From: Promethearchaeota archaeon
Lineage (GTDB): Archaea; Asgardarchaeota; Lokiarchaeia; Sigyniarchaeales; SOKP01
Assembly: GCA_016840085.1 (NCBI GenBank)
Contig: JAEOTA010000006.1
Coordinates: 19,639-83,638 of the forward strand
Direction: 5' to 3'
DNA length: 64,000 nucleotides
Below, one piece after another: positions 33,473-38,439 of the stretch. Under the pieces are notes generated by a model that did not search any database, had not been told where the DNA came from, and saw only the letters and a list, made by a program, of their open reading frames with translations. The first letter of the stretch is position 1. The number at the start of each line of letters is the position of its first letter. The position numbers were made by a program, and so were the translations under genes.

Positions 33473-33862
33473 TTATTGTCTCTTAGTTATTTTTGTATTC
33501 AACCCATTCCGTGCTTTTAAGAGTAATTCTAGATTAGAACTAACTTTCCCTATCTTATTCACTTTATTCGGCATTTGAAAATTTTCTATTATTATAATAA
33601 ACTCATCTGTTTTAGGATTATAGACAATATCTCCTTGTTCCACAATTTTTGTGGATTTGGGATTAGGCCCTTTATATATCTCTAATCCAGGAAGAGTCCA
33701 ATATTTTTTTGTCCCGAAACTAAATCGACCTCTCAACACGAATGGCAGTTTATCAATTATCGCATCAGCGGAAAGAGGAGTAATATATCTGATGATGTGA
33801 CCCTCTAATGTGCCAATTCCAAATAATTCAATCTTTATTGGTACTAAGCCTGTATCGCTCAT
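33473..33862 (-). CDS. Cyclophilin-like fold protein (DUF369-like)
   Basis: PLSADAIIDKLP, VEQGDIVY and VNKIGKV. Confidence 0.7.
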   Translation of the reverse strand: MSDTGLVPIKIELFGIGTLEGHIIRYITPLSADAIIDKLPFVLRGRFSFGTKKYWTLPGLEIYKGPNPKSTKIVEQGDIVYNPKTDEFIIIIENFQMPNKVNKIGKVSSNLELLLKARNGLNTKITKRQ

Positions 33863-33968
33863 TTTAATAAATATAATTCGAGTATTGATCTTTATTTTAT
33901 CTTTTATTAATTTTCTAATTCATTAAATATTTGTTAAAAAAATCAAAGAATTTATTATTTATCTTAAT

Positions 33969-33983
33969 AAGAAGATTTAAATA
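33969..33983 (+). promoter_or_regulatory. Archaeal BRE/TATA promoter for the putative ncRNA
   Basis: Purine-rich AAGAAGA then TTTAAATA (33976-33983), centred about 27 nt before G34007. Confidence 0.55.
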
Positions 33984-34006
33984 ATCAAATTATCATATAT
34001 CTATTT

Positions 34007-34508
34007 GGACAATAGGTAGATATTGCATTGGAATTAGATACATAATTGCGGTTTAAACACCGATTCAAATTAATTTGATTCCTTTTTTCCGACAATTTTT
34101 TTATTTTTGATTTCAAATCATTTAAAACAATCCTAGATATATATTCAATTTGATTCCCAATGTTCCTGTAGTGCTCAATATTAAAGCTCAGAAGCTTGAA
34201 TTTTTACATAACTTCTGTAAAACCAGCAGAAAAATTAGCACTTTGGAGCTAAAATATAAGTTTATCATCTACGTAACGATTTAATTTATACATTCTTTAT
34301 AAGAGAGACTAGTTTACATAGATAATTTAAGTTCTGCTGATAATATATTGTTGTTTTATGATACTTGAGACATAAAAACAGCAAGAACATACTTTCTATA
34401 AAAAATAGTAAATAGGAGCTTTGATTACTTAATTGTTTCTTAGGATTATGCCTTTCTTAAGTTCCTTTGAATCAATTTTACTTTGAATAATCGGAGCGCC
34501 TATTGTCC
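34007..34508 (+). ncRNA. Putative ~500-nt structured non-coding RNA of unassigned class
   Basis: GGACAATAGG/CCTATTGTCC terminal helix, nested long-range pairings, upstream TATA, downstream T12, no ORF in the track. Confidence 0.6.
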
Positions 34509-35359
34509 TTTTTTTTTTTTAGATTTCTCAAATCATCCATAGTATCAATATCATAAAATTCTTTGTTAGTTCTTAGCCTAAATGCATATATTTTTCTACC
34601 ATTATCAATCATATAATTAAATGTTTCCCAAATTGTTTTTACTCTGATTGCACCTTTTAGATCTAAGATTACTTGGATAAATTTGTAATTGAATATAAAA
34701 ATGGGAATTATTTGATGAAGGACATCATCAGAAAAAATATCTCTTATTTTTACTTGAGAAATCCTTTTTAAAACAGATTCTGAATCGAATTTTTTGACTT
34801 CAGCATAAGAAATTAGATTATTTCTTTTATAGATTTGTTCTAATGCCTTTAATTCTATATCTCTATAAAAAACAAATGGATAATCGTGAATCAATTTGGA
34901 ATTTTTAGAAATTAAGAGTAAAATTTCTTTTAATATGTCTAAGTCAAAAACAGTATCCCCTGGAATTAGTATATAGTAATTGTTACTAGTGAAGAAATTT
35001 TGGTTCTTTGTAATAGATAAAAAAGAATATAGTGGTCCTAATTTGTACTGATTCTTAGCATCGATTATTATCAAATTTTTTTGTAAGGAATTATTACTTT
35101 TTTTTAATGTTGAAATAAAATCTCGAATGGTATCTCCTAAATACCCTATAACAACTGCTATTTGCTTTATTTCTAAATCGATTAAATTATTGATGGTATG
35201 ATTAATAATCGAAATATTATTTAGTTTTTCGATTTTAATTAATGGTTTTGGTAAGGATTTTGTAATTTCCTTAAGTCTTTTCCCCTCTCCAGCACATAAA
35301 ATGATAGCATATAATTTTTCTTTAAAATCATTCTTTAGTAATGACAATCCTATTCCCAT
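34478..35359 (-). CDS. Nucleotidyltransferase (NTP_transferase)
   Basis: AIILCAGEGKRLK, PKPL, PGD and DIDT motifs. Confidence 0.85.
   Translation of the reverse strand: MGIGLSLLKNDFKEKLYAIILCAGEGKRLKEITKSLPKPLIKIEKLNNISIINHTINNLIDLEIKQIAVVIGYLGDTIRDFISTLKKSNNSLQKNLIIIDAKNQYKLGPLYSFLSITKNQNFFTSNNYYILIPGDTVFDLDILKEILLLISKNSKLIHDYPFVFYRDIELKALEQIYKRNNLISYAEVKKFDSESVLKRISQVKIRDIFSDDVLHQIIPIFIFNYKFIQVILDLKGAIRVKTIWETFNYMIDNGRKIYAFRLRTNKEFYDIDTMDDLRNLKKKKDNRRSDYSK
34509..34520 (+). terminator. Oligo-T archaeal terminator
   Basis: 12 T immediately after the terminal helix. Confidence 0.55.
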
Positions 35360-37650: not shown

Positions 37651-38439
37651 TTGGTTTCTTATCTATTACTTATGGTAAATTTAAACTGGAAAGGAAAGAT
37701 TGAAAATAAAATAGAATCAAGTGATTCAATTCCTTTCTTTATTAAAGATATTTTTCTATCTAATCTAAATAGTCTAGAAACTAGGAATGAATGGTGGAAT
37801 CTCTTGATATTGGGAGATAATCTTTCAACATTGAATTCACTATTGGATAATTTTGCCGAAAAGATAACTTTAATTTATAGCGATCCTCCATTTGCAACAG
37901 GTGGAGATTATAACTTAAAAATTCTTGTAGGAGAAAATAAAGAAATAATAACTGATTTAGCTTATGATGATAAATGGAAAGATGGTTTAGATTCATATAT
38001 AGAATTTATGTATAGCCGTTTAAAATTAATGAAAAAATTGCTATCTCAGAATGGTTCAATCTATATTCATTTAGATTGGCATGTTTCTCACTATATTAAA
38101 ATTATTATGGATGATGTGTTTGGTCCTGAGAACTTTAGAAATGAAATTATATGGGCATATCCTGCTGCTTCAGCTAGAACTAAAAGATTTTTTATGAGAT
38201 CTTTTGATGTAATTCTATTTTATACAAAATCTGAAGATTATATTTTCAATGATGATCCTAATATCTATATGGAGTATTCAGACAGGGTAAAAAATGCATT
38301 AAAGAAAGATGAAAAGGGCATATTCTATTACAGAGGGGGAAGTCATAATGGAAAAAAATTATCAAGAAAAGTTTATGTAACTAAAAAGGGCATTTTTCCT
38401 CGTGATGTTTGGAATGATATCAAGAAGATCGAAAATTAA
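37651..38439 (+). pseudogene. C-terminally truncated N6/N4 DNA methyltransferase (beta class)
   Basis: GDNL, DPPF, GSIYIHLD, NEIIW and PRDVW present; stops before TQKP and the FxGxG SAM-binding motif. Confidence 0.85.

Follow-up and report, generated by a model that had tools for sequence, protein, structure and literature searches.

An undescribed class of large non-coding RNA in one family of Promethearchaeia (Lokiarchaeia)

Introduction

To our knowledge, few large archaeal non-coding RNAs have been described beyond rRNA, SRP RNA and RNase P RNA. Bacteria contain large orphan RNAs, such as OLE, ROOL and GOLLD, which are structured, several hundred bases long, and of a function that is not evident from their sequence. 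Yeast telomerase RNA and 7SK RNA are flexible scaffolds, with conserved ends and small motifs, dispensable arms and a U-rich protein site.

Here we study an RNA gene in a window of 64,000 nucleotides, which is the whole stretch of Promethearchaeota archaeon DNA that was analysed. Like archaeal SRP RNA (RF01857), the new RNA has a TATA promoter of its own, paired ends, a U-tract and a single copy; unlike SRP RNA, it lacks helix 6, the helix 8 motif and a conserved long rod. As in archaeal RNase P RNA (RF00373) and RNase MRP RNA, a terminal helix, P1, closes a multi-arm body whose arms are gained or lost, but the CR-I/CR-V pseudoknot of RNase P RNA is missing. With bacterial tmRNA (RF00023) it shares a 7-bp core stem formed from both ends and, in its shortest genus, a length of about 360 nt. 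It differs from OLE, ROOL and GOLLD in being archaeal, AT-rich and single-copy among core genes, with far more variable arms and no Rfam match. The likeness to yeast telomerase RNA and 7SK is a functional analogy only, with no homology and neither a template nor a pseudoknot domain seen.

Results

The gene and its neighbours

The predicted RNA occupies 34007-34520 on the + strand; it measures 502 nt up to and including the terminal helix, and a U-tract follows. Its 84 homologues are 343-632 nt long and come from one Promethearchaeia (Lokiarchaeia) family. We regard the locus as very probably a stand-alone, single-copy, non-coding RNA gene on the + strand. On the basis of conservation, covariation, single copy and RNA contigs, it is an undescribed class of large archaeal non-coding RNA; a first-pass annotation of this DNA had already proposed a promoter and terminator for the RNA itself and, as one option, an Asgard RNA class not yet described.

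No credible Rfam match was found, at gathering or permissive thresholds, in the window or at nine other loci. A literature search, whose coverage leaves out many subscription papers, found no published description of the RNA, and the eight members tested contain no conserved ORF. The folding z-score is -2.7 on the + strand and -3.65 on the - strand; since it is no better on the + strand, folding energy alone does not assign the strand. A descriptor that combines a TATA box, a terminal helix of at least 10 bp and a U-tail matches a single locus in the 4.68-Mb genome, and the architecture of the ends is therefore above chance. A bacterial promoter and terminator scan was also applied, and it is uninformative for archaea.

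The RNA gene lies between two protein-coding genes, neither of which is part of it: a divergent cyclophilin-like gene (33473-33862, - strand; PF18050) and a convergent NTP-transferase gene (34478-35359, - strand; PF00483), the last in the run aspS-map-NTP-transferase. The NTP-transferase ORF, on the opposite strand, shares its end with the last 31 nt of the RNA and the T12, a fact that the first-pass annotation did not mention. In genus g18 the NTP-transferase gene is missing at the locus and the RNA is retained, ending some 30 nt before it would reach the map stop codon; in genus g23 it is the linkage with the cyclophilin-like gene that is lost. Elsewhere in the window, a DNA methyltransferase-like ORF (37651-38439) breaks off abruptly next to a leucine-rich-repeat gene.

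Promoter, U-tract and transcription

A BRE and TATA box stand at 33969-33983 on the + strand (TATA at 33976-33983), with seven invariant and five near-invariant columns among 42 homologues from 12 genera. The start of the TATA box is separated from the paired 5' end by 30-31 nt in 81 of the 84 homologues. At the other end, a tract of 12 T on the + strand (34509-34520) resembles an archaeal terminator; the 15 nt that follow the helix contain a median of 11.5 T, and never fewer than 8, across 84 loci. Judged from these sequences, the most likely transcript begins with the G that opens the terminal helix (34007) and ends in the U-tract. The BRE/TATA, the 10-bp helix 34007-34016/34499-34508 with its additional U.G pair, and the T12 had all been located correctly in the first-pass annotation.

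Contigs from three metatranscriptomes, produced in three studies, span 33991-34525. They concentrate on the RNA gene: coverage of the promoter, which is equally conserved, is nil, and that of the flanking genes is sparse. Two of them end no more than about 10-16 nt away from the predicted start, and one at 34518, inside the U-tract. The contigs are unstranded, come from relatives, and belong to runs picked with this sequence; they give neither strand, nor level, nor exact ends. We therefore treat them only as a hint of transcription. One run contains a joint from 34065 to 34411, which probably stems from a diverged relative whose two ends both match, and which we excluded from the evidence. 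A second conserved AT-rich intergenic motif, at 33885-33915, is probably the promoter of the divergent cyclophilin-like gene.

The terminal helix

P1 is formed by a 5' strand at 34007-34017 (+), whose first base is the putative start site, and a 3' strand at 34498-34508 (+), which is antisense to the last NTP-transferase codons. Positions 1-7 are paired in 81-84 of the 84 homologues, and pairing at positions 8-9 is lost in 11-13 members. Position 3 is A-U in 83 of 84 and never G.U. At position 4 the pair is C-G in 65 homologues, U-G in 10, U-A in 5 and G-C in 2 (n=84). The U-G state can pair on the + strand only, and thus the G-U intermediates favour that strand. Position 10 is G-C in 37 members, U-A in 31 and A-U in 9. 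When the whole alignment, built from sequence only, was submitted to a tree-aware covariation test, 34016-34499 was the sole significant pair. In the 22 RNAs whose 5' end has changed, a purine-rich extension of 3-5 nt pairs with the tail, so that the first base remains paired.

The sequence of P1 at positions 1-9 is nearly unchanged, beyond what pairing requires, which suggests that the sequence itself is recognised. The 3' strand is nearly invariant, although the reading frame of the protein tail that overlaps it differs between species; the constraint is therefore not on the protein. The C-terminal tail of the NTP-transferase (34478-34520, - strand) consists of a run of Lys followed by GQ, DNRRSD or a longer end. 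As read from its sequence, this tail is a by-product of the RNA 3' end, with a frame that varies by species. No BHB motif was seen by eye at the inner end of P1 in two members.

The interior of the RNA

The first-pass annotation had described the interior as a long rod of nested helices, leading to a distal domain with a possible pseudoknot, and it took the ordered nesting as its main support. Each of the helices that it listed is complementary in this genome, but six of the eight are not conserved: 34060/34489, 34075/34469, 34129/34441, 34160/34385, 34224/34332 and the hairpin 34349/34371 keep 26-64% of their pairs in 60 homologues, with mean pairing probabilities of 0.00-0.01. In the same 60 homologues the terminal helix (86% of pairs) and 34170-34175/34237-34242 (68%) hold. 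Shuffled sequences average 7.4 nested helices of at least 6 bp, compared with 9 in the real sequence and about 5 in the proposed chain, and so nesting of this length is at chance level. When pairing is averaged over 63 homologues, the result is, instead of a rod, a multi-arm junction that P1 closes and that includes a local 3' hairpin. Neither the long rod nor the pseudoknot is supported, and the crossing helix 34224/34332 is among those that are not conserved.

Proceeding from the 5' end, a CAUUGG motif (34025-34034, +), whose C, A and G are invariant in 42 sequences, is the only inner motif common to the whole family, though it is missing from 4 short members. No consistent pairing partner was found for it within the RNA, where candidate partners barely exceed the control. 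Two specific partners were rejected: the strand before the P1 3' arm is at background level, genus g19 excepted, and pairing inside the 5' domain reaches -5.3 versus -4.6 kcal/mol in controls, at a position that is not fixed. A small 5' hairpin follows (34049-34062, +; 34049-34052/34059-34062), with a mean pairing probability of 0.31 and 68% of cells paired. After 34066, about 12 nt that are present in relatives are missing from this genome, according to both the alignment and one RNA contig.

An internal U-run at 34096-34108 (+) is a candidate site for an Sm-like protein. At nt 40-140, 67 of 80 RNAs contain a run of at least six U and 5 of 80 an A-run; the genome background is 28%. The middle arm (34161-34250, +) comprises the helices 34161-34166/34245-34250 and 34170-34175/34237-34242, with 68-69% of cells paired and a variable loop; it is dispensable, being gone in two members (L086 and L097). 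The core hairpin, D4 (34331-34372, +), contains an invariant GAC, and its six central pairs are kept in 41-52 of 52 sequences, with weak covariation. In its apical part, 34336-34340 facing 34360-34364 form a K-loop-like motif in 23 of 52 sequences, and a related motif occurs in genus g23.

Near the 3' end, an internal copy of the P1 5' strand (34411-34416, +) can pair with 34499-34504, with 89% of cells paired, and can thereby compete with P1. An exact AAUAG copy is found near the 3' end in 31 of 40 members of genus g1, 15 of 20 of g20, 3 of 3 of g22 and 3 of 4 of g23, compared with 0-18% in blocks from the middle of the RNA; genera g18, g19 and g21 have no such copy of the strand. The 3' hairpin itself (34418-34497, +; 34418-34426/34489-34497, 34431-34440/34468-34477 and 34443-34445/34463-34465) can invade the terminal helix. 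Its cells are paired in 87% of cases, compared with 37-52% in slid registers. Its covariation score is 0.109 versus 0.082, and 0 of 500 shuffles reach it, in a control that ignores kinship. We also considered a double T-loop or T-box, and rejected it: of the two UGAGA-like motifs, the first lacks conservation and the second lies in a helix.

The conserved set thus consists of the P1 sequence, CAUUGG, the internal U-run, the core hairpin and the 3' hairpin, and the arms between them vary or vanish. For example, there are natural short forms without the 5' domain, CAUUGG included, or without the middle arm.

Distribution and copy number

There is one copy of the RNA per genome, and a single copy in this one. 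Searched at the DNA level, most of 36 same-genus genomes gave strong matches, and every same-genus locus retrieved at sufficient length has the syntenic placement. We reached other genera by following the cyclophilin-like gene, and then with a model of the promoter and 5' end. This model has strong matches in all 13 genera of the family, f1, including g23, where the RNA is about 360 nt long and no longer beside the cyclophilin-like gene. In other Lokiarchaeia families it found weak, TATA-level matches only (E above 3e-4), and those inspected lack a terminal helix plus U-tail. A strict pattern occurs in 40 of 68 other genomes of f1, once each, and in 0 of 232 other Asgard genomes. A 3' pattern run over all GTDB species gave 36 matches, in Asgard-labelled or unlabelled archaeal MAGs, most of them named Promethearchaeota. 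Among the genomes searched, then, the RNA is confined to f1, and a very diverged form elsewhere is possible. In a viral scan the pattern was too short and its matches were those expected by chance, with no matching 3' end among the first 80.

Partial matches were encountered as well. Two same-genus genomes (L311 and L312) have a second TATA-led leader, about 200 nt upstream of an ORF, with a similar purine-rich start and a CAUUGG motif, and no matching 3' end. Locus L083 (contig C87 of genome G126) has the RNA's promoter and 5' end, and no matching 3' helix strand was found there; G126 has a second 5' match on contig C151, and L083 may be an interrupted copy or reflect a mixed bin.

Comparison with known RNA genes

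The first-pass annotation had offered an expanded SRP-like RNA as one reading of the element. The element has no match to RF01857 at E up to 10, and the helix 8 motif with its GNRA loop is missing, as had been noted. A separate SRP RNA with helix 8 lies on another contig of this genome, at L001, and SRP RNA is also present in three members of the family; the annotation had advised looking for one elsewhere in the genome. The gene at L001 (1430-1760, - strand) reaches only 35.6 bits, a score that covers helices 6-8 and falls well short of the Rfam cut-off. SRP RNA is below the cut-off in all five Lokiarchaeia tested, and annotation would therefore miss it; full-length forms were found in relatives.

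RNase P or MRP RNA was rejected on similar grounds. CR-I and CR-V, which form the P4 pseudoknot, are absent from the element, as the first-pass annotation had stated, there is no Rfam match, and the true RNase P RNAs are on contig C66. There, L002 and L003 (G000 contig C66:15325-15981) are tandem RNase P RNA genes of 130 and 91 bits, both over the cut-off, the weaker of which seems to lack a normal 3' end.

Nor is the element an expanded 5S rRNA, as it has no RF00001 match and the 5S gene is on contig C60. This gene (L125:1399-1526, G000 contig C60), the only 5S-like gene of the genome, is circularly permuted: the 3' half comes first, helix I is closed by a 4-nt loop, and a flanking stem is conserved. 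Permuted 5S genes are present in two other same-genus genomes (L129 and L130), one with a different break point, and the sister family has canonical 5S. The one paper found on permuted 5S rRNA (PMC4267664) deals with organelles.

Other classes were compared with the element in turn. Y RNA was rejected, since Ro60/TROVE is present in 0 of 61 genomes. With regard to C/D or H/ACA guides, the K-loop-like motif is present in 23 of 52 sequences and paired boxes are absent. A search for guide-length complementarity to rRNA gave only AT-rich chance matches to one 23S and partial 16S sequences, taken from relatives because this genome has no assembled 16S or 23S; complementarity to 5S, SRP or RNase P RNA gave nothing telling. 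With regard to 6S RNA, the element folds as a multi-arm junction and Rfam gives no match. Bearing on the Sm class, a U-run occurs in 67 of 80 RNAs, and the genome has two LSM genes over the cut-off.

Discussion

We tentatively favour, at somewhat less than even confidence, the view that the RNA is a flexible scaffold or decoy for proteins, with the joined ends as its working platform; this estimate applies to the mechanism, not to the reality of the gene. The range in size (343-632 nt) and the deletion of whole arms fit a scaffold better than a compact ribozyme. Proteins would read the joined ends by sequence. Candidate partners, proposed by analogy only, are an Sm-like ring for the U-runs and L7Ae for the K-loop-like motif. 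In four genera the internal strand could displace half of P1, by which the platform may open or close. Several points count against the scaffold: the K-loop-like motif is limited to 23 of 52 sequences, 13 of 80 RNAs lack the U-run, three genera have no competing strand, a single pair passed the covariation test on the whole alignment, and the RNA contigs are unstranded and come from relatives.

Several other explanations must be weighed against the scaffold. It is unlikely, in our estimate, that the joined ends mimic a tRNA, as they do in tmRNA, with a 7-bp acceptor-like stem, a D-loop-like UGG and the competing helix as T-stem; on this view RNase P and tRNase Z would trim the RNA, and its site of action would be the ribosome or tRNA-handling enzymes. 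It would account for the limit of near-universal pairing to P1 positions 1-7, for the 22 members with a leader-like paired extension of 3-5 nt in front, for the A and then C that often follow the helix in genera g20 and g21, and for the g23 members of about 360 nt, in which an internal strand is stacked on the stem; the UGG just after the stem, we presume, resembles the tmRNA D-loop. Yet there is no G3.U70, the third pair being A-U in 83 of 84; the 3' hairpin, long and variable, has no canonical T-loop; there is no conserved tag ORF; SmpB is over the cut-off in 0 of 61 genomes, with 10 bacterial controls positive; ARAGORN was negative on the window and 13 loci; Rfam tmRNA had no match at permissive E-values; and one RNA contig enters the U-tract instead of ending in CCA. 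Slightly less probable is a role in cis, as an antisense regulator or terminator partner for the convergent transcript of aspS, map and the NTP-transferase gene. The genera examined all share a single linkage, convergence with this gene run, and in this genome the 31-nt overlap and U-tract reach into the NTP-transferase ORF; but g18 retains an RNA that stops before map without any NTP-transferase gene, a short overlap needs no structured body of 350-600 nt with conserved inner motifs, and other Lokiarchaeia families have no such RNA beside map at the four loci checked.

We give the same low credence to a transcription regulator of the 6S or 7SK kind, which would bind RNA polymerase or a factor close to the joined ends and let go of it once displacement of the 5' strand allows the 3' strand to refold onto the internal copy. 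The alternative pairing of the P1 3' strand is conserved in four genera, with covariation, and we take this strand exchange to resemble 6S refolding; a terminal helix at +1, a U-tail and a single copy agree with it too. Against this, there is no promoter-like rod with a central bubble and no Rfam match, the alternative helix is missing in g18, g19 and g21, and in the short g1 members P1 is shifted outward and the competition is gone. It is very improbable that the gene is a second copy of SRP or RNase P/MRP RNA that has diverged strongly. The general type is the same (own promoter, terminal helix, 350-600 nt), and the family tolerates odd RNA genes, such as the tandem RNase P copies and the permuted 5S, but SRP and RNase P RNAs are both encoded separately, and no member tested has a helix-8 or CR-I/CR-V motif or any Rfam score. 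Least probable of all, and already largely refuted, is a DNA element, either a MITE or an IS remnant, with terminal inverted repeats that merely look like a helix. Its terminal inverted repeat, its AT-rich interior and a folding z no better on + than on - would suit such an element; however, the dispersed copies that the first-pass annotation had named as a sign of a MITE are absent, and we find one copy per genome at an orthologous site in 13 genera, a fixed TATA spacing, G.U intermediates possible on the + strand only, RNA contigs, and no viral locus among those retrieved with both ends.

To return to the protein scaffold, a bolder form of the idea would make the RNA part of a new, lineage-wide class of ribonucleoprotein in archaea related to eukaryotes, with a long scaffold whose U-runs are bound by Sm proteins, an end that can switch, and a function comparable to that of snRNA, telomerase RNA or 7SK in eukaryotes. 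Another bold reading is an SmpB-free archaeal tRNA mimic in translation. We consider such readings doubtful. The RNA is found in one family only, and is absent in this search from the neighbouring family, which, we understand, holds cultured strains. With the search models built here, R1 and R2, it can be found in any sediment data set, and its natural versions of 343-366 nt offer a minimal construct for probing and structure work. A single-copy RNA of 350-630 nt, kept through 13 genera of one Asgard family, points to an unrecognised RNA-protein machine in the archaeal lineage closest to eukaryotes.
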